Positions 3,567-57,500 of a stretch of DNA of 64,000 nt are shown in pieces; the first letter of the stretch is position 1; the number at the start of each line of letters is the position of its first letter. The notes beneath the pieces are model-generated. The model did not search any database. It was not told where the DNA came from and was given only the letters and a program-made list of their open reading frames with translations. The position numbers and the translations under genes are program-made. Origin of the DNA: a virus (taxonomy: Duplodnaviria > Caudoviricetes); IMG/VR virus record IMGVR_UViG_2852055501_000011, positions 20,357 through 84,356 of that record. One strand, given 5' to 3'.

Positions 3567-4024
3567 ACCGCTTTCTCCGTTTCGCGCCGGTTAATCAGAC
3601 CCTGCCACTGCTTACCACCGGCAAATGTCCAGCGTTTCATTTCGTCACAGGCACCCGCGATATCACCGGCATTGAGTTTGCGCAGCATTGTCGAACGCGA
3701 GAACGCACCGGTTCCGGTGTTATATGCAAATGAATAGATGGCCGCCCGGCTATTGTCATCAATCGGCACTTTGATCATCGGGTCAACCGCGCGCCGGACT
3801 TTCGTCAGGTCGTCATGCAGCAGCGCCTTACATTCAGCGTCCGTGTACAACTTGCCGGGCTGAATATCACTGCCGGTATGGCCATAACATACGGTAAGCA
3901 CTCCGGCCACATCACGGTAAGGTTTGTACTCAACACCCTCATACGCGGGGATCAGCACCAGCGCTCCGGCAATCGCCCCGGCGGCACAAGCGGCCATGAC
4001 TTTTTTAAATAATCGGTTATTCAT
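3548..4024 (-). CDS. SAR endolysin (GH24 lysozyme)
   Basis: Ala/Gly-rich N-terminal SAR helix; [21 protein letters not shown] catalytic motif. Confidence 0.95.
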
Positions 4025-4762: not shown

Positions 4763-5793
4763 GTTATTTCTGCCTTAGTCTGCTCAAACCGTTCCGCCTC
4801 CATCTCCACACCCAGAATGCGGCGATTGTGCTTCAGTGCGGCTTTCAGTGTCGCCCCGGATCCCATAAAGAAATCGGCTACCAGGTCACCTTCACGGCTG
4901 CTGGCTTTTATGATGTGCTCCATCATTGCGGCTGGTTTTTCACAGGGGTGCTTTCCGGGGTAATACTGAACCGGCGGGAATGTCCACACATCGGTATAAG
5001 GCACATCAACGGATACCGTGAAGTAACGACGTAACAACTGATACTGATCTGCCAGTTCGTGATATTCACGCCTGAGTGTGTGTTGTTCACTGACCAGATC
5101 ATTATGTTCACGGTATAACGGGTTATTTCGCTGACACTCTGCAGCTGTCCGCTGAAAAAGTGCCTGTAATTTCCGGAAATCCGCTTCATTCGGTAACTGC
5201 CACTGACTGTACCCGAACCAGTGTGAAGACATCTGTTTGCCGGTTGCCTGGTCAATTTCTTTTGCCGTGATACCCAATGCATCACGCGCCTGCCGGAAAT
5301 ACTCAATCAGCGGGGTAAACACATTTTTCTTCAGTTCATCCCGCCGCTGGTGGTACTCACTGCCTTTTCCTTTTACCGGTCCCTGATAATGCTCTGCAAA
5401 CAGGATCCGCTCAGTAGACGGGAAAAAACAACGCAGGCTTTCTTTGTTTTGCCGCCGCCACGGGCCGGAAGGCTTCGCCCATATGATATGGCTGAGAACG
5501 CTGAACCTCTCCCGTAACAGCATTTCTGTATCTGAGGCCAGACGTGAACCACAAAACAGGTACAAGCTGCCGTTTGGTTTCAGTACCCGCCAGAACTCTG
5601 CCAACATTTCGTCCAGCCAGGAAAGATAAGCAGAAACGTCCGGCCACTGGTTATCCCAGGCACATGTTTTTACCTGAAAATACGGCGGGTCCGTGGCGAT
5701 TAAATCAATGCAATTGTCCGGGAGGGTTTTGATATAGCTGAGTGAGTCGTCGTTGACTAAATTAATACTGTTTAAATTAACAGTACTTTTCAT
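4738..5793 (-). CDS. Site-specific DNA methyltransferase (N6A/N4C, beta class)
   Basis: TDPPY motif IV, HPCEKP and DFFMGSG motif I. Confidence 0.93.
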   Translation of the reverse strand: MKSTVNLNSINLVNDDSLSYIKTLPDNCIDLIATDPPYFQVKTCAWDNQWPDVSAYLSWLDEMLAEFWRVLKPNGSLYLFCGSRLASDTEMLLRERFSVLSHIIWAKPSGPWRRQNKESLRCFFPSTERILFAEHYQGPVKGKGSEYHQRRDELKKNVFTPLIEYFRQARDALGITAKEIDQATGKQMSSHWFGYSQWQLPNEADFRKLQALFQRTAAECQRNNPLYREHNDLVSEQHTLRREYHELADQYQLLRRYFTVSVDVPYTDVWTFPPVQYYPGKHPCEKPAAMMEHIIKASSREGDLVADFFMGSGATLKAALKHNRRILGVEMEAERFEQTKAEITQLSGNSG

Positions 5794-19599: not shown

Positions 19600-21567
19600 T
19601 TACTGCGTACATATTATCTCTATCCCAAACTCACACCCATTAGGCATATCAGATGGCCTGACAAGCTCCTGTGATGAGTTGTTTATTATATAGAAAAATG
19701 CTTTTCCTGATGATGATGGAGACTGATTATAAAACGGTATTAGCGTATATTTAAACCCATTTGACTGGTTATAAGACTGCGTAAATATATATGGAGCCCA
19801 AGAACCAATACCCTTTTCATATTCAACAACTAATGCAAACGAGTCACTTTCGCTAACCATTACCGACTTAATACCCATAGGCAAGTAATATGATCTATTA
19901 ATTATAAATGACCCGTCTTTTTTAAAGATATGACATAACCTCCTTAATCCTACCGCGTTAACTTCTTGAGATGTATTTTTGGGGATGTAGATATTGCTGA
20001 AACCATTAAAATTTATTTCTGACGGTTTTAAATTTGTCTCAATTCTGTTATCTCGCCCATCAGCCCCCTTAACGTCGACAAGGTACTGACCTTGATTTCC
20101 ATAATATGAATAGTCCCAAATGTATGAAGTGATATTATTAGCGCCTGCCCCATCTATCATAAGAGCCCATATACTTGTATCAGTCCATTGCTGAATATAA
20201 TCTATTTCCAAATTTGCTATCTGAGTATAGTACGCGTACTTCCCTGATGTTTTTGGTATGCACTTTAAAACAGGCCCATAGTTCCCTTTTATGACCAAAT
20301 TCTTAAATGTACATGCCGTAATCCAGTTTGTGACAACTTTATATTCAAATGCATCTGTTGGCTCATAAACTTCAATGACGAGAGTATACTCCCCCTCTTC
20401 AAGATTAAGGTTATCAAAATGACACCAACAGATTGAGTTTTGCTTTCTGGCAGGGTCATTGGTTCCATCCATGACGTTATTGCAGCGAATTTTTAGAGCT
20501 GTTCCACTTCTGTCTGAATAATTTGGAATTAGTCTGACACCATCAATATTCAAATTACGAAGATTGTTTTTACCCAATACAAGGGCGACGTTATGATTCC
20601 ATGCTTTCAACGGAGTATCTACTGCAATGCGACCACCGCCTATTTTTTCAGATTTAAAAAATAGGTTATCCGTTTCAAATACAAACATATCATCACGTAA
20701 TGTTCTGTTGATTATCTGAGCGCCAGATTTAAACAGAAAATTCTTTTTGACATTTATTTTTTTGTTACAGTCAAATGAATAGCCAGGAATAACTACTGTC
20801 TTGATTCTGGAAATATCCTGCATTGATACAAGAATGCTGCCAATGTCAGTATCACGTACAGCGCCAACAGTTCTGATATCAACATCCCCGTAGGTTAACA
20901 TAGACGCCGTTAACCCATTGCTCAATGCAATATCAATGATGCCATTGGCTGCAGCGTTGGTTACTGTATACTCAGCCTCCCCACCATCATTGATCGTGTA
21001 ATATCCGCGTGTTTTAACCGTTGCCCCAAGTGGCAGTGATGTTTCCGCTACCATTTCAGCGACATTATCGAAGACGCGAAGGTAGTTTTCAGTCAGGCCA
21101 CCAACAAAGGTGAACCCGTTATCCGCTTTCAAATCAGTTCTCAGGTTAGCTCCGCCGATATCAATCCACGCCCCTTTGCCGATACCACCTGTTGATTCGG
21201 GAGTTGAGCCAGCCGGAACAACCTTAGGCAAATCACCATCCCAGCGATAATATTCACCGGTGGTTTCATCACGCAGAATCTGATTACGCTGGGTGATCTC
21301 ATTGTCTGGCAGTTGCGCACCCTGCTGGAAACTATCAACGGTGATGTAACCAGCTGAAATTATTGCCTGATTCATATCGACTTTGAATCGCAAAACAAGC
21401 TGGTCGAACATCCACTTCATGCCTTCGATAGTCATATGGCAGCGGCCAAACCGGTCTTTATATTCGTGTTCCAGCGATGTCACGAACTCGTCAATTTTGC
21501 CTGAGTTAAATTTCAGGTCGCGCGGTGCTTCACTCGGTACTGCATTTTGAGTAGGGATAGTAGCCAT
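19600..21567 (-). CDS. Tailspike/receptor-binding protein
   Basis: Conserved N-terminus MATIPTQNAVPSEAPRDLKFNSGKIDEFVTS, YYRWDG..PK, KTRGYY..DGG; low-GC beta-helix-like C-terminus. Confidence 0.88.
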   Translation of the reverse strand: MATIPTQNAVPSEAPRDLKFNSGKIDEFVTSLEHEYKDRFGRCHMTIEGMKWMFDQLVLRFKVDMNQAIISAGYITVDSFQQGAQLPDNEITQRNQILRDETTGEYYRWDGDLPKVVPAGSTPESTGGIGKGAWIDIGGANLRTDLKADNGFTFVGGLTENYLRVFDNVAEMVAETSLPLGATVKTRGYYTINDGGEAEYTVTNAAANGIIDIALSNGLTASMLTYGDVDIRTVGAVRDTDIGSILVSMQDISRIKTVVIPGYSFDCNKKINVKKNFLFKSGAQIINRTLRDDMFVFETDNLFFKSEKIGGGRIAVDTPLKAWNHNVALVLGKNNLRNLNIDGVRLIPNYSDRSGTALKIRCNNVMDGTNDPARKQNSICWCHFDNLNLEEGEYTLVIEVYEPTDAFEYKVVTNWITACTFKNLVIKGNYGPVLKCIPKTSGKYAYYTQIANLEIDYIQQWTDTSIWALMIDGAGANNITSYIWDYSYYGNQGQYLVDVKGADGRDNRIETNLKPSEINFNGFSNIYIPKNTSQEVNAVGLRRLCHIFKKDGSFIINRSYYLPMGIKSVMVSESDSFALVVEYEKGIGSWAPYIFTQSYNQSNGFKYTLIPFYNQSPSSSGKAFFYIINNSSQELVRPSDMPNGCEFGIEIICTQ

Positions 21568-52838: not shown

Positions 52839-53010
52839 GCCGTTTACCTCCGGTCAGTTCTTCCCTATGGGCTTTCCGCAATAAAGCATCGTTAAAAGCC
52901 GCCCTGAGTGCTTTCGCGCCTTGCTCAGTGACACTCCTTGTCTCGTTGTATTCGGCGATGTTTTTATGCACAGCGTGATAGTTAAAACTATGATTCCGTT
53001 TACGTTTCAT
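52828..53010 (-). CDS. Hypothetical protein
   Basis: 60 aa, GAGG RBS, overlaps the O start. Confidence 0.6.
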   Translation of the reverse strand: MKRKRNHSFNYHAVHKNIAEYNETRSVTEQGAKALRAAFNDALLRKAHREELTGGKRHEQ

Positions 53011-53083
53011 ATATAATTAGTCCTCATCAAGTACTAAATTGATTTGACTCTTAGCCTCGGTTACAGTCGGGGCTTTTTCTTGC

Positions 53084-53338
53084 CTAAAACATCGATACCT
53101 GTCGTGATACTTTGGCTTTCTTTTTCGTTCCTGCGCTTGGCTTCTGTCCATACTTCTCAGCCCATAACTTTGCTACCCGAAGGCAGTCATCAAACATCCC
53201 GCCACGTCGTGTTGCCTGTGAGCAGCGGCGATAATGGTCTAAACCCTGGTCGGCGGCGAAGTCTAATACCCCCCCCTGATACCCGAGCTTTTCCAGTTCG
53301 CTAATGATGTTCTTCCTGATGAACTCCGTTGGATTCAT
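53084..53338 (-). CDS. Hypothetical protein
   Basis: GGAGG RBS; GLDHYRRCSQA..GGMFDDCL. Confidence 0.65.
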   Translation of the reverse strand: MNPTEFIRKNIISELEKLGYQGGVLDFAADQGLDHYRRCSQATRRGGMFDDCLRVAKLWAEKYGQKPSAGTKKKAKVSRQVSMF

Positions 53339-53633
53339 GAAAACCTCCCGTTTTCCACAATGAGAATTCCGCTATCTGCTTCCACAGAAACCGGTACTCT
53401 TCCTCGCTGATTTTCTTCTCGCCCGGCAAAACAAAATCTGTGATACCGGCTGCGGCCAATGTCTCGCATATCTCCGGTAACTTTTCTGTTCTGCGTAAGA
53501 CTGTTGAATCGTGTACACCGAGCAGTTTTGCAACCACTGTCTGTGTGGTGCTTCTCAGTGCCTGATGAGCTGTTGCCATCAGATGATTTGACACAAACCG
53601 GTTAAACGATTTGCGTGGATTTGCATTTTCCAT
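53301..53633 (-). CDS. CII-like activator
   Basis: QTVVAKLLGVHDSTVLR HTH; follows cro. Confidence 0.8.
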   Translation of the reverse strand: MENANPRKSFNRFVSNHLMATAHQALRSTTQTVVAKLLGVHDSTVLRRTEKLPEICETLAAAGITDFVLPGEKKISEEEYRFLWKQIAEFSLWKTGGFHESNGVHQEEHH

Positions 53634-53711
53634 AATTCATAATGTCCTTATTGAGATACAGTTATTCGCTCACTTCCTGTGAGGTGTTGCTGTGTTGAAA
53701 AAAAGTACGTT

Positions 53712-53838
53712 TGTACAGCGCCGTTACTCTGCTTGTCCGTTATCCCTTAACTGACGGATCGCCCCAGTTAAGCCGCACCATGTGCAATACAGATAAACAG
53801 CGCCTGTACATTCCGATTTTGTAAATTGTTAAAGAGCA
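53712..53838 (-). ncRNA. boxA plus structured RNA element in the PR transcript (nutR position)
   Basis: TGCTCTTTAACA just after the cro stop; closing stem TGTACA-G-GCGCTGTT/AACGGCGC-TGTACA; two internal hairpins and a loop pseudoknot. Confidence 0.6.
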
Positions 53839-53843
53839 GTTTC

Positions 53844-54071
53844 TTACCAGTACTGATTGCCAAATTCCCAAACGTGCGGGAGGTCTGGCCTTAGGTCTCT
53901 GCCTTTAACTTGTCCGTTGGTCGCCTTGACGATTAGCGGAATGTATTCAGGGGAAACCTTCGCCTTGTTGTGAAGCCACTTAAAAACTGCCTGCTGCGTC
54001 AAACCGCATGCTTCGCCAAGTTTTTTTTGTGTTCCCACAATATCAATGGCGGTTTTAATTGCTTCGTTCAT
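53844..54071 (-). CDS. Cro-like repressor (YdaS family)
   Basis: GTQKKLGEACGLTQQAVFKW..DLRPDL. Confidence 0.9.
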   Translation of the reverse strand: MNEAIKTAIDIVGTQKKLGEACGLTQQAVFKWLHNKAKVSPEYIPLIVKATNGQVKGRDLRPDLPHVWEFGNQYW

Positions 54072-54072
54072 A

Positions 54073-54164
54073 AAAACCTCCGTTGTTTTATTTTCCATAT
54101 TAAAACCATAGTTGTTTTTAATCAACAACTATATTCGTTTGAATAACAACAACCGAGGTTGTAT
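54073..54164. promoter_or_regulatory. OR operators
   Basis: Four imperfect AACAAC-N4/5-GTTGTT palindromes between cro and cI. Confidence 0.7.
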
Positions 54165-54174
54165 CTTTGGGATT

Positions 54175-54882
54175 ATGAAAACGACTCTTGCACAACGACT
54201 AAAACAAGCCAGAAAACACGCTGGTCTTTCTCAGAAAGAACTTGGCGAGGCTATTGGTGTATCTCAGGCGGCTATTCAGAAAATTGAGTCTGGCAGCGCT
54301 CAGACGTCCACAAAGCTGATAGAAATAGCTAAAGTCCTGTCAGTTCCGGCGGAATGGCTTTCATCTGGTGCCGGGGATAATCCATTACTCCCCTCTGATG
54401 GTGCTGGTACAGTGAAAATAGATCTTGTCACTCCTGCAGCAATAGAGACTTACAAAGTGGAAATCCTCGATGTTGAAGCCAGCGCTGGCCCTGGCGTTAT
54501 GGTTTTAGATGATTTTATTGAAACCATCACGGCAATTGAGTATTCAGCGGAAGAAGCCAAGAGGCTGTTTGGCGGAAGGCCAGCTGATACCGTTAAGATG
54601 ATCACTGTGAGAGGTGACTCTATGGCGGACACCTTCGAACCACGCGATCAGATATTCGTTGATATGACCGTTAACCATTTTGACGGTGACGGAATTTATG
54701 TCTTCATACTGGACAATCAGCTCTACATTAAGCGCCTGCAAATGCAGTACAAGCGCCTTGCTGTGATATCAGATAATCCAAAATATGAAACATGGCACTT
54801 GAATGAAGAGTCTATTGATGGCGTATTCATACAGGCTAAGGTACTCGTGAGCCAGTCAATTAAGTATAAATTTCACGGGTAA
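54175..54882 (+). CDS. CI-like repressor (HTH plus S24 peptidase)
   Basis: HTH, ASAG cleavage site, GDSM, YIKRL. Confidence 0.95.
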   Translation: MKTTLAQRLKQARKHAGLSQKELGEAIGVSQAAIQKIESGSAQTSTKLIEIAKVLSVPAEWLSSGAGDNPLLPSDGAGTVKIDLVTPAAIETYKVEILDVEASAGPGVMVLDDFIETITAIEYSAEEAKRLFGGRPADTVKMITVRGDSMADTFEPRDQIFVDMTVNHFDGDGIYVFILDNQLYIKRLQMQYKRLAVISDNPKYETWHLNEESIDGVFIQAKVLVSQSIKYKFHG

Positions 54883-54989
54883 CAGTGGCCTAACGACGCG
54901 TTTTAGGGTGTGGTTGACATTCTTTACTTCAATATCTCTTGGTTTGCCGCACAAAATTGATAATGACACTACAGGTGATGTCATATAAT

Positions 54990-55295
54990 ATGTCCAGAAC
55001 ACAAGATGTAATCAATGAGCTAATTAAGCGTAAAAAGGCCATATCTTGTAATGGCAGCAAAGGATTGTTGTTGTACTTAGAATCCTTGGGGTTTAAGCAC
55101 AAGGAGGGGAAGACGGTAGGTCACAGAATTTTCACCCACCCTCAGCTTAGCTCTATATCTGACTACAAGACTCATTCGGTAGATTGTGGACACAAGCCGA
55201 ACAGAGACATGAAGCACGCGTACATAACAAACACATTGCGCGTACTTAATCAGTACAAGGATGAACTAGAGGAAATTGAAGCCAATGACAAATAA
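54990..55295 (+). CDS. HicA-family toxin
   Basis: LESLGF..GKTVGHRIFTHP..HKP..MKHAYI pattern typical of the HicA fold. Confidence 0.82.
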   Translation: MSRTQDVINELIKRKKAISCNGSKGLLLYLESLGFKHKEGKTVGHRIFTHPQLSSISDYKTHSVDCGHKPNRDMKHAYITNTLRVLNQYKDELEEIEANDK

Positions 55296-55863
55296 AGTCT
55301 TTGATCCTGAAAAATATACAATATCAGTAAAGAAAACCACCGAAGATGGTGAGGTGGTTTTTGTGGCTAGCGTCGCCGAGCTTCCTGATATCAGAGAGTA
55401 TGCAGATACTGCTGACTTCGCCAGAGAGTTAGCAATTGATTCAATATCCACCGCATATGAAGTTTTTGCTGAGCAAGGGATGATTTTCCCTCAACCAAGT
55501 GATGATTCTCAAATTGAAAGTGTCAGCGGAAGAGTAACTTTGCGTCTGCCAAAATCAATCCACGCCAAATGCATAAAAGCAGCGGAAAATGATGGCGTCA
55601 GTTTGAATTCATACTTAACAACCTGCATAACAAGCTACTCTGCACAGAATGAAATTAAAGGCGAGATTCGCAGCCAGTTCACCCAGGTGAAGGCGCTAAT
55701 AAAGTCTCACGGCAGATCAGATACCTATAGCGGAAGAATGGTTGATAGAGGTGGAAACTCTTGGGTTTCATCACTGGATGCAAAATTTTCTAAAGAGAGT
55801 GACACCCTGGAAAGGGATAGTGAAATTCAATTATCTGGCTTTTATTCGGAGTTATATCAATGA
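55276..55863 (+). CDS. HicB-family antitoxin with long C-terminal extension
   Basis: YTI..FVASVAELPD..; SGRVTLRLPKSIH..AENDGVSLNSY RHH domain; about 75 extra residues. Confidence 0.88.
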   Translation: MKPMTNKVFDPEKYTISVKKTTEDGEVVFVASVAELPDIREYADTADFARELAIDSISTAYEVFAEQGMIFPQPSDDSQIESVSGRVTLRLPKSIHAKCIKAAENDGVSLNSYLTTCITSYSAQNEIKGEIRSQFTQVKALIKSHGRSDTYSGRMVDRGGNSWVSSLDAKFSKESDTLERDSEIQLSGFYSELYQ

Positions 55864-56300
55864 GTATTATGTCGTCAGTCATATTAAAATCCGCAACGGT
55901 CACTTCTAACACCATGGATTTTGTAAGACCAGATATTGATGTCGCCAAAGTGGCTGTAAAATTTAAACTGCACAACGCCTTAGAAGAAGATGAAGAGTAC
56001 AAATATTGCAGGTTAGCATTCTCCGGTGATGTTATTGGAAAATTAACCGATGAAGATGAACCTGATTTCGATTTAGTTGACCATGAGTTTAAGTTTGGCA
56101 TCTCCGTTGATTATGAATTTGAAATCAACGATCGAGAGAAATATCTATCACTAACTAAAGATGAAAAAGCTGAATTGTGTGCAAATTTAGTTTATCTAGA
56201 TTTTAGAAGGCGCATGACGCTAAATGCAAATAACATAGGGATAAGCAGCTTTAGAATGCCACTATCGTTAATGACTCTAACAAAGAAATCAGAAAAATAA
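55860..56300 (+). CDS. SecB-like chaperone
   Basis: 146 aa, acidic, four beta-strand-like segments then CANLVYLDFRRRM..GISSFRMP paralleling SecB CPNILFPYARE..G.FPQL.L; ATG overlaps the hicB stop. Confidence 0.68.
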   Translation: MSIMSSVILKSATVTSNTMDFVRPDIDVAKVAVKFKLHNALEEDEEYKYCRLAFSGDVIGKLTDEDEPDFDLVDHEFKFGISVDYEFEINDREKYLSLTKDEKAELCANLVYLDFRRRMTLNANNIGISSFRMPLSLMTLTKKSEK

Positions 56301-56444
56301 CCCCCAGCCCTCCCCGCGAGGGCTTTTTTGTGCCTGTAATTCCCCCGCCTGTGTGATCTGCGTCCAATCGTGACGATTTTTTGAAAATAAATAACAAATT
56401 AAAACAACCAAATACAACCAATGAAGAGAAAAAAAACCCATATA

Positions 56445-56484
56445 AACAACTTTGGTTGTTGACATTAAAACAACTATAGTTTTT
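56445..56484. promoter_or_regulatory. OL operators and PL promoter
   Basis: AACAACTTTGGTTGTT and AACAACTATAGTTTTT overlapping TTGACA. Confidence 0.72.
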
Positions 56485-56527
56485 AATTAACTCATCGAAG
56501 GCAACCACAGTATGAAAACACCTTCAT

Positions 56528-56684
56528 TGTTCTTTAACAATTCAGAAAGTCGAAACAGCACAATCCACCTGTTTAGATCCCAACGCACAAATGCGATGTA
56601 GCGCCTAATGGGTGGCGTGAAGATTAGCACTGCACGAAAGTGATCACGGTCGTGAACGGGCAACACTGGCGGGATGGGTTGTGT
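56528..56684 (+). ncRNA. boxA plus structured RNA element in the PL leader (nutL position)
   Basis: TGTTCTTTAACA; closing stem GCACAATCCA/TGGGTTGTGT; hairpins CGCA/TGCG and CTAAT/ATTAG; loop CGTGA complementary to TCACG. Confidence 0.55.
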
Positions 56685-56732
56685 GAGCGCAGATACTAAT
56701 TATAGCCCATTCGGTGAGTGGGCTATGGTGAG

Positions 56733-57236
56733 TTAACCAGACTTCAACTTAGAAACCGGAGATAAATATACCGAACCACATGAATTGCATTTAAGGGTAG
56801 CAATATGAGCGCCAATACCAGGGATAGTTTTAACCGAATTAATGCTAAGTGCAGACGCCTTTCCAGACTCATAACAGTGAGCACAAAAGTAGGAATATTT
56901 GCTAATGGAGTTTTCGGGAAGATTCTTACGATAGATCGTCGTACCAAGCATAGGGCTCCACGCTTCATAATCAACGGACTCTCTAAGCCATTTCTCTTTG
57001 TCAGCATTTTTTGCATTTGCTTCACTGAGAGACTCCTCAAGGAGCATTATCGACTTCTGCTTCTCATTTATGATCTCTAAAAGCTTAGTGTTTTCCATTT
57101 GAATATCATGAAGTTTTCTATTTATTTCATAGACTGCATTGTCAATAACAGCCTGATTTTTAGCGTCATTAACGGCGTTAAATAGATTAAGGCTTTCTCT
57201 GATAGCAGCAATAGCCGCTGGAATTTCACCGAACAT
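56733..57236 (-). CDS. Antisense moron protein, coiled coil plus CxxC..CxxC zinc finger
   Basis: Low GC, FCAHC and CNSC, own terminator near 56702-56726. Confidence 0.75.
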   Translation of the reverse strand: MFGEIPAAIAAIRESLNLFNAVNDAKNQAVIDNAVYEINRKLHDIQMENTKLLEIINEKQKSIMLLEESLSEANAKNADKEKWLRESVDYEAWSPMLGTTIYRKNLPENSISKYSYFCAHCYESGKASALSINSVKTIPGIGAHIATLKCNSCGSVYLSPVSKLKSG

Positions 57237-57500
57237 AATTAACTTCCATATTGTGGGGGTGAGTTAATTATAACTGTTTTCTGTTGTGGGGGCACGACGG
57301 AACCACCTCGCCTGATGTGGTTAAAAGCAGGCATCCAGTCAGTATTGGGATTGGTGAATGCGAAGGCGGTTGGATATTTGAGGCCATGTAGCCAGCGTAT
57401 GTGCGGGGTTCCGCCACCAATCACCAATACTGACTAACACCCCGCAGCGGGGATAACTATTCGGACATCACGTAGCACAGGGAAGTGCATAGGAGGAAGT

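Follow-up and report, generated by a model that had tools for sequence, protein, structure and literature searches.

The 64,000-nt window analysed here is part of an 84-kb provirus record (IMG/VR record IMGVR_UViG_2852055501_000011, positions 20,357 to 84,356) and contains a lambdoid immunity region at ~53-57 kb. Each of the two divergent early transcripts of this region carries an rRNA-type boxA followed, at a fixed short spacing, by a predicted folded RNA domain. Judged by its covariation, the left element is a member of a real, widespread and apparently undescribed structured RNA family that is joined to boxA, while the features of the right element fit a shorter, diverged relative of this family rather than a plain member. 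We propose that both elements act as boxA-nucleated antitermination leaders that are independent of an N protein, a reading to which we assign a probability of about 0.45. The left (L) and right (R) elements consist of the following features.

56528-56540, plus strand: boxA-L (TGTTCTTTAACAA), from the motif scan; fits GYTCTTTAANA
56546-56555, plus strand: linker motif L, AAAGTCGAAA (family consensus AAAGUCGGAA), from the sequence and the composite scan
56556-56692, plus strand: type-1 folded domain (stems P1 and P2, hairpins P3, P4a/P4 and P5, tail GAGCGCAG), from the covariance model R1
53826-53838, minus strand: boxA-R (TGCTCTTTAACAA), from the motif scan
53811-53820, minus strand: linker motif R, AAAATCGGAA, from the sequence and the composite scan
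53705-53810, minus strand: type-2 folded domain, from the minimum free energy (MFE) structure, the R1 alignment and the type-2 consensus
53698-53704, minus strand: run of seven U just after the R element, from the sequence; not called a terminator by the scan

The two boxA sequences, TGCTCTTTAACAATT at 53838-53824 (minus strand) and TGTTCTTTAACAATT at 56528-56542 (plus strand), are divergently arranged around the immunity region, at the coordinates given by an earlier sequence-only reading of this DNA. With at most one mismatch to TGYTCTTTAACAATT, they are the sole two matches in 64 kb, where 0.03 would be expected by chance. The AAARTCGRAA motif that the same reading had placed behind each boxA was recovered as well: the 28-nt composite of boxA, 3 nt and AAARTCGRAA occurs exactly twice in the window, and none of 100 shuffled sequences had any match. 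Both boxA sequences agree with GYTCTTTAANA, a consensus derived from rRNA and suhB sequences and given for the gamma-proteobacterial BoxA in PMC5725501. The R copy starts 5 nt past the stop codon of a cro-like gene and ahead of a cII-like gene, which is the nutR position, and the L copy lies ~40 nt past the -10 region of a PL-like promoter, at the start of the PL transcript, which is the nutL position; the placement proposed from the sequence alone was therefore correct.

A pattern scan of IMG/VR identified 88 loci which, by inspection, comprised 60 type-1 copies, six type-2 copies and 22 chance matches. These related loci are designated by L-numbers, with L001 corresponding to phage APSE-2 and L210 to phage P13374. 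RNAalifold predicted 29 base pairs in 57 distinct type-1 copies, 19 of them with compensatory changes. The covariance model R1 was built from type-1 copies only, with boxA left out; applied to 80 loci it gave 74 strong matches (122-169 bits), one per locus, and it scored independent members at 96.8-160 bits. The window L copy, which is among the 57 training rows, was matched at 56545-56692 (plus strand) with 130.8 bits (E 1.1e-31). Building such a model and searching phage genomes with it, as had been suggested, yielded a model-based alignment of 75 copies (64 distinct) with a refined structure of 34 pairs. Bases were paired in 96.7% of its cells, 25 of the 34 pairs had changed on both sides in a compensatory manner, and 0 of 500 shuffles reached the observed values on four of five measures. 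When the partners were slid as a control, pairing was found in only 25-46% of the cells. An all-against-all analysis of column covariation was swamped by clade effects; the only signals to withstand checking were the nested P4a pairs (columns 62-63/97-98) and the P5 tip.

In the structure of the family, P1 is a long closing stem located directly after the linker motif. The 3-bp stem P2 (CCC/GGG) closes a four-way junction from which three arms extend: the small hairpin P3 (CGCA..UGCG), the longer hairpin P4a/P4, whose loop is usually GCGAUC, and the hairpin P5, which varies between copies and is in many of them capped by a GNRA tetraloop (CAC-GAAA-GUG in the window L copy). The junction strands and the 3′ tail (AAGCGCAA) are conserved on a par with the helices. 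Since G-U pairs are frequent in the fold, it would exist only in the PL-sense RNA. Thermodynamics alone gave no support for the L copy (z -0.30), so its fold rests on covariation and would have been missed by MFE. For the same copy, the sequence-only reading had drawn a second hairpin, CTAAT/ATTAG, and a pseudoknot, CGTGA/TCACG; neither was upheld, because these pairings clash with the covariation-supported helices, with 63.4% of the family cells paired and 477 of 500 shuffles as high. The most conserved loop of the family, GCGAUCC in P4, holds GATC, a Dam site in DNA and a self-complementary 4-mer in RNA; in the window, this loop is found in the R copy (53766-53772) and is absent from the L copy.

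A scan of 53000-57500 with Rfam 15 returned seven matches at E <= 10, all far below the gathering score, and those touching the elements were Ysr197 (17.1 bits, gathering score 167) and sR21 (20 bits, gathering score 45). The claim of a distinct folded RNA linked to boxA stands; the domain falls below the gathering score of every Rfam family and is unrelated to the put-like RNA annotated in HK639 and to anything in HK022. We found no earlier description of the family in the literature searched, which was mostly open-access without supplements, and an earlier mention elsewhere is possible.

The first IMG/VR pattern required boxA, and a second pattern without boxA was therefore run to test the linkage between boxA and the domain. 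It yielded at least 11 new true members scoring 122-160 bits with R1, the other matches listed being mostly chance, and all of these members carry a boxA-like sequence (one or two differences) at the same distance. On this comparison of sequences, boxA is part of one unit with the folded domain. In the copy that blastn detected in P13374, boxA is exact and the linker AAAGUCGGAA is absent, so the linker motif is common and not obligatory. In three further loci (L049, L062 and L092), a boxA core and AAAGTCGRAA are followed directly by an ATG and a Lys/Arg-rich open reading frame (ORF) resembling a helix-turn-helix protein, with no folded domain; these are either chance matches or cases in which the boxA-linker module has been reused.

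Enterobacterales phages of the lambdoid and P22-like kinds carry the family in their PL leader. Among 62 loci with at least 1.5 kb of upstream sequence, an S24-type repressor gene was found in 48. In 47 of these, the gene precedes the element on the same strand at a distance of 157-2752 nt, which places the element in the PL leader; only L076, with its nutR-type copy, departs from this. Promoter-like hexamers, which are consensus matches only, occur within ~90 nt upstream of boxA in most loci. Using the window L copy as query, blastn retrieved 14 phage records at ~71-77% identity, including APSE phages, Providencia phage PSTCR7lys and Klebsiella phage ST13-OXA48phi12.2. In the three records whose annotations were inspected (APSE-2, PSTCR7lys and ST13-OXA48phi12.2), it is found where the early-left operon begins, in mostly unannotated DNA, just past the repressor gene where that gene falls within the stretch. 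With the L036 copy as query, 121 phage records were retrieved, of which ~100 are Shiga toxin (Stx)-converting phages of E. coli and Shigella, including P13374, TL-2011c, phi191, VT2phi_272, PA2 and ArgO145; the other matches include APSE, Edwardsiella, Klebsiella and Providencia phages. On whole records, R1 gave 143.9 bits for APSE-2 and 96.8 bits for P13374, and no match for HK022 and P22. In bacterial genomes, a strict pattern was found in Arsenophonus, Xenorhabdus, Citrobacter, Phlomobacter and one further enterobacterium. Public RNA runs provided only assembled contigs of metatranscriptomes and relatives, which were of low depth and mosaic and uninformative as to where transcripts start or end and as to read-through.

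The R domain comprises a closing stem (UGUACAGGCGCUGUU / AACGGCGCUGUACA), an inner stem, the hairpin GCAC-AUG-GUGC, a hairpin CUUAACUG..CAGUUAAG with the loop GCGAUCC, a 13-nt linker and the tail AAACGUAC. Its MFE is -45.9 kcal/mol (z -2.85), and one of 200 shuffles was as good. R1 missed this copy with default filters over the whole window; with the filters off, in a search of 601 nt, it matched 53705-53821 (minus strand) at 19.9 bits (E 1.9e-5) and aligned it end to end, with a deletion in place of P5; the match takes in the linker motif, the outer stem, the tail and a P4 hairpin carrying GCGAUCC. Scores of the other six type-2 copies were 20.3-27 bits (E 3.9e-4 to 0.019 in 0.77 Mb). A blastn search of the R copy against phages gave no match, and scanning 30 stretches for type 2 added one new member (L235), the others being chance matches. 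Type 2 is known from two lineages only, window/L076 and the L015 group, between which the P4 and inner P1 stems differ in sequence with pairing kept (7 of 27 predicted pairs, amounting to a single comparison). These data fit a diverged relative of type 1. The shared architecture with different sequence that had been noted for the two domains holds, probably as diverged homology (CUGUUUA closing stem, GCAC/CGCA hairpin and longer hairpin), but does not extend to the second hairpin drawn for the L copy; the domains measure ~100 nt (R) and ~130 nt (L). The loop-linker pairing UCCGU/ACGGA is possible over 5 bp in the window R copy but, as judged by eye, over only three pairs in the other type-2 lineage. 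The tail AAACGUAC with the seven U (53698-53712, minus strand), located before the cII-like gene, may act as a weak terminator or a pause site where tR1 would lie.

L076, the closest relative of the window on the PR side, has at 3765-3965 (plus strand) the same PL promoter and boxA as the window. Right after ..TTTAACAATT, it carries an unrelated, strongly folding domain (z -4.1) and then a long hairpin; this PL-leader domain is related to sequences of Salmonella phage MS2 LVA and Serratia phage BZS1. The location of the mosaic joint exactly behind boxA suggests that the folded domains are interchangeable, and boxA thus appears to be joined to exchangeable domains of type 1, type 2 and, in L076, a third predicted kind.

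The elements were compared with known antitermination systems, including P22 nutL and nutR, which were read for this purpose. As in the nut sites of lambda and P22, each early transcript has its boxA close to the 5′ end, where nutL or nutR would lie, and an RNA structure follows within a few nt. In contrast to these sites, the 5-bp/pentaloop boxB is replaced by a predicted domain of ~100 nt (R) or a ~130-nt four-way junction (L), no N gene was found in the window prophage, and the element is constant across phages of different N types. The rRNA-type boxA is shared with the rrn leader (boxB-boxA-boxC; NusA/B/E/G, SuhB and S4), a system that needs no phage protein and whose main target is Rho-dependent termination. 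According to PMC6614801, boxA binds NusB/E, the rrn RNA that follows boxA is bound by SuhB and NusA and engages in a long-range duplex, and boxC forms a long-range RNase III duplex. Unlike in rrn, a phage-specific folded domain rather than a linear boxC lies behind boxA, and the setting is a phage early operon.

The put RNAs of HK022 follow PL and PR, and put RNA is not known to need Nus factors. The element shares with the put RNAs of HK022 and HK639 its position as a cis-placed RNA just past the early promoters of an apparently N-less lambdoid phage. In PMC9378689, put is said to act by itself on RNA polymerase. The HK639 record annotates a putL-like RNA 74 nt after a putative PL; this RNA has no likeness to the element in sequence or structure (R1 1.6 bits, E 7) and, unlike the element, has no boxA before it. 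On whole records, R1 found nothing in HK022 and a chance match (E 0.39) in the head-gene region of HK639. In lambda, the RNase III hairpin of the N leader is a large structure between the boxA region and the first PL gene. The element occupies the same interval, the first PL gene being N-like in some phages, but it has a conserved multi-helix junction core and occurs in N-less phages and at nutR.

The surroundings of the elements in the window are as follows.

53301-53633, minus strand: cII-like gene, the first after the R element (phrog_191, E 6.5e-18)
53844-54071, minus strand: cro-like gene of the PR operon (Pfam YdaS_toxin/HTH_3, E 2.5e-19)
54172-54882, plus strand: cI-like repressor (Pfam HTH_3 and Peptidase_S24)
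54990-56300, plus strand: three accessory ORFs from cI to the pre-PL terminator, the middle one HicB-like (Pfam E 4.4e-7)
56306-56324, plus strand: terminator of the cI operon (terminator scan)
56452-56487, plus strand: putative PL-like promoter and overlapping operator-like repeats, from the sequence
56702-56729, plus strand: hairpin HP-D (TATAGCCCA..TGGGCTATGG), from sequence comparison by eye
56733-57236, minus strand: antisense accessory gene (phrog_1244, E 1.4e-22)

The PL-like promoter points away from cI, downstream of the cI-operon terminator, and its hexamers were read by eye as TTGACA-17 nt-TTTAAT and by script as TTGGTT-17 nt-TATAGT. On the PR side, the cII-like gene is followed by genes for replication protein O and then a DnaB-type helicase. 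The first of the three ORFs after cI may be a HicA-type partner of the HicB-like ORF, in which case these ORFs may form a toxin-antitoxin-like module in the lysogenic operon. ARAGORN found no tRNA-like gene.

The antisense gene, whose product has, by eye, a coiled coil and a Cys-rich C-terminus, separates the PL leader from the first sense gene (57501). Because this stretch is antisense to a real gene, ~800 nt of the window PL transcript would be untranslated and therefore a target of Rho. A second antisense gene is possible at 57239-57427 (minus strand), and similar antisense genes follow the element in L002 and L097. HP-D (..UAUAGNNCA / UGNNCUAUGG..) recurs after type-1 and type-2 elements (L031, L008, L037, L022, L067, L017, L030 and L054); by eye, its arms vary yet remain complementary, with G-U pairs included, and its flanks are conserved. 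In L017, it is followed by a U-run. HP-D might be a processing or pause site.

We propose that boxA would load host Nus factors and that the RNA following it directly, made up of linker, closing stem and junction domain, would fold into a compact body, which would take the place of boxB and N in lambda, or of the boxA-boxC linker and boxC in rrn. By contacting RNA polymerase, this body might hold the Nus complex on the enzyme, which would allow the PL and PR transcripts to pass through untranslated regions and terminators, above all those that depend on Rho. In favour of the proposal, boxA is of the rRNA type, a conserved fold follows it at a short and constant distance, the positions resemble those of nut sites, and the window PL transcript would have to cross the 800-nt untranslated antisense stretch. 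Additionally, no N-like gene was found here, N, cII and cIII are seemingly absent in phi191, as reported for P13374 (PMC4122784), and RNA behind the rrn boxA binds SuhB and NusA (PMC6614801).

The absence of N in the window, claimed by the sequence-only reading, is borne out only insofar as none was found. The sole Arg-rich ORF after the L copy (91 aa, 56805-57080) overlaps the antisense gene, and the rest of the window PL operon holds nothing N-like. A strict scan for a 5-bp stem with a pentaloop, which found P22 nutL and the L017 boxB and missed P22 nutR, detected no boxB-like hairpin in either window leader, in line with the same reading. No match to phrog_271, the P22 N family, was found in the provirus; this test is weak, as phrog_271 also misses the evident N-like protein of L031. 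More generally, phrog_271, Pfam and PHROGs were too insensitive for N-like proteins, and the N-like proteins P0001 and P0002 of relatives gave no useful match.

Several observations weigh against N-independent antitermination. A short, fast-evolving N could have slipped past these searches. Across the related loci, which are not independent samples, 27 of 80 encode a small Arg-rich, N-like protein after the element; of the 67 loci that extend at least 1 kb downstream, 26 do so. N and the element thus occur together, replacement of N by the element fails as a rule for the family, and at best it holds only for the N-less members. In L067 and L074, the element is followed 640 nt on, in the same transcript, by a boxA and a lambda-like boxB. 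The paired nutL and nutR copies, real in the window, do not extend to the family either: two copies were found in the window alone, L076 carries a single one at nutR, and all other loci have a single copy in the PL leader. The P4 hairpin of the window L copy is shortened and lacks the family GCGAUC loop, as in L060. Finally, neither window copy has a predicted intrinsic terminator on its strand within 1.5 kb, and across 57 loci no enrichment of same-strand terminators was seen (22, fewer than the 50 antisense). A same-strand terminator lies at most 1.5 kb downstream in 16 of these 57 loci, for example 169 nt past the P13374 copy, and the survey carries little weight in either direction.

The P13374 gene order is cro, cI, methyltransferase, restriction enzyme, element, intrinsic terminator, Rha-like regulator, kil, gam, recT and exo. 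At ~5200-5330 of this locus (L210), between the element and the Rha-like ORF, a promoter-like sequence is followed after ~90 nt by a strong intrinsic terminator (AGACGC..GCGTCT and a T-run). This stretch may be a small RNA gene, or a terminator for the element to overcome.

The N-like proteins invite the explanation that the element is an elaborate nut site, in which the folded domain, its GNRA-capped hairpin or HP-D binds an Arg-rich N-like protein, that of the window being too diverged or too small to recognise. We regard this as unlikely, although the 27 loci with such ORFs, the difficulty of detecting N proteins and the frequent GNRA tip of P5 are in keeping with it, and the N-like gene starts 34-57 nt past HP-D in L031, L097 and L138. 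Twelve of the 27 proteins resemble P22 N in having an Arg-rich N-terminus and in ending with xTAR (blastp against P22 gp24, E 0.009). The other 15 belong to a 44-aa Arg-rich family (..FPMNNNVRRLRYQQKREALK..) of the early-left operon that is unannotated in APSE. Its reference, P0002, is an ORF at 10541-10675 of L008, and similar ORFs occur in L001 (APSE-2), L007, L010, L017, L022, L030, L037, L038, L051, L056, L064, L067, L074 and L091. A lambda-like boxB (CGCU-GAAAA-AGCG) lies upstream of the 44-aa ORF in L017, L067 and L074, and this protein is a candidate minimal N analogue.

The boxB hairpins of the relatives argue that, in these phages, the element holds the slot of boxB without being the binding site of N. 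A boxA with a small hairpin is present at nutR in seven phages with N-like genes (L002, L012, L031, L014, L036, L097 and L191), and the element follows boxA at the spacing of boxB at these nutR sites. None of nine such hairpins (seven at nutR and two in the PL transcript of L067 and L074) recurs in its own locus, PL leader included. Phages with differing nutR hairpins, and hence N specificities, share the element core and the P5 tip (GAGA), while L002 and L031, with N proteins 83% identical and an identical nutR hairpin, have different HP-D hairpins. Moreover, no Arg-rich ORF was found within 2.5 kb in the Klebsiella-type loci, P13374, L060 and the window, and the window record has no tblastn match (E <= 10) to either N-like type of the relatives.

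A second explanation, in our view also improbable, is that boxA merely shields a long structured leader from Rho, as in rRNA and other non-coding transcripts, and that the folded domain has a separate job, which under this explanation could be ligand or protein sensing, RNase III processing, control of the first PL gene or release of a small RNA. The junction nucleotides are conserved as the helices are, as in ligand- or protein-binding RNAs, and HP-D is conserved after the domain. The long P1 duplex looks like a processing site, reminiscent of the RNase III duplex of rrn boxC (PMC6614801). In most phages the element is present only at PL, and L076, with its unrelated domain behind the same promoter and boxA, suggests different payloads. 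On the other hand, no match at gathering level was found in Rfam, riboswitches and ribozymes included, the Shine-Dalgarno sequence of the next gene is outside the fold, and the distance from boxA to the domain is short and constant. The nutR copy of the window lies directly before cII, where there is no long untranslated leader in need of protection.

Conservation at the DNA or protein level (an operator, a Dam/GATC site or an opposite-strand small gene) instead of RNA structure is very improbable and already disfavoured by the covariation result: the GATC of the most conserved loop, a 59-aa minus-strand ORF and a hypothetical protein annotated across the element in one phage record would accord with it, whereas 25 of 34 pairs are compensatory, the frequent G-U pairs would be C-A mismatches on the opposite strand, indels lie in hairpin loops and the element is downstream of the promoter.

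If the elements are N-independent antitermination leaders, they might constitute a third kind of phage early antitermination, RNA-only like put yet built on an rRNA-type boxA, with a four-way junction instead of N, and widespread in phages of Enterobacterales; we advance this broader view as a tentative one. As part of it, boxA would load NusB/E, perhaps with NusA and SuhB, and the junction RNA would lock them onto RNA polymerase; this would be the early-gene control of lambdoid phages that lack N, among them the Stx2a phage type of the 2011 O104:H4 outbreak strain.

Whatever its function, the element represents a family of structured RNAs that is large, shows very strong covariation and is detected by no Rfam model. 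Processive antitermination is a textbook paradigm with few solutions (N/nut, Q, put RNA, the rrn complex and LoaP/EAR). Early-gene control was left open in the papers on P13374 and phi191 (PMC4122784) and on phage LLS (PMC12315714). If the proposal is true, a folded RNA on an rRNA-type boxA would link the Nus-dependent nut/rrn type with the RNA-only put type and would offer a simple, protein-free handle on how Nus complexes are fixed to RNA polymerase. It would also explain the early-gene expression of many N-less lambdoid phages.

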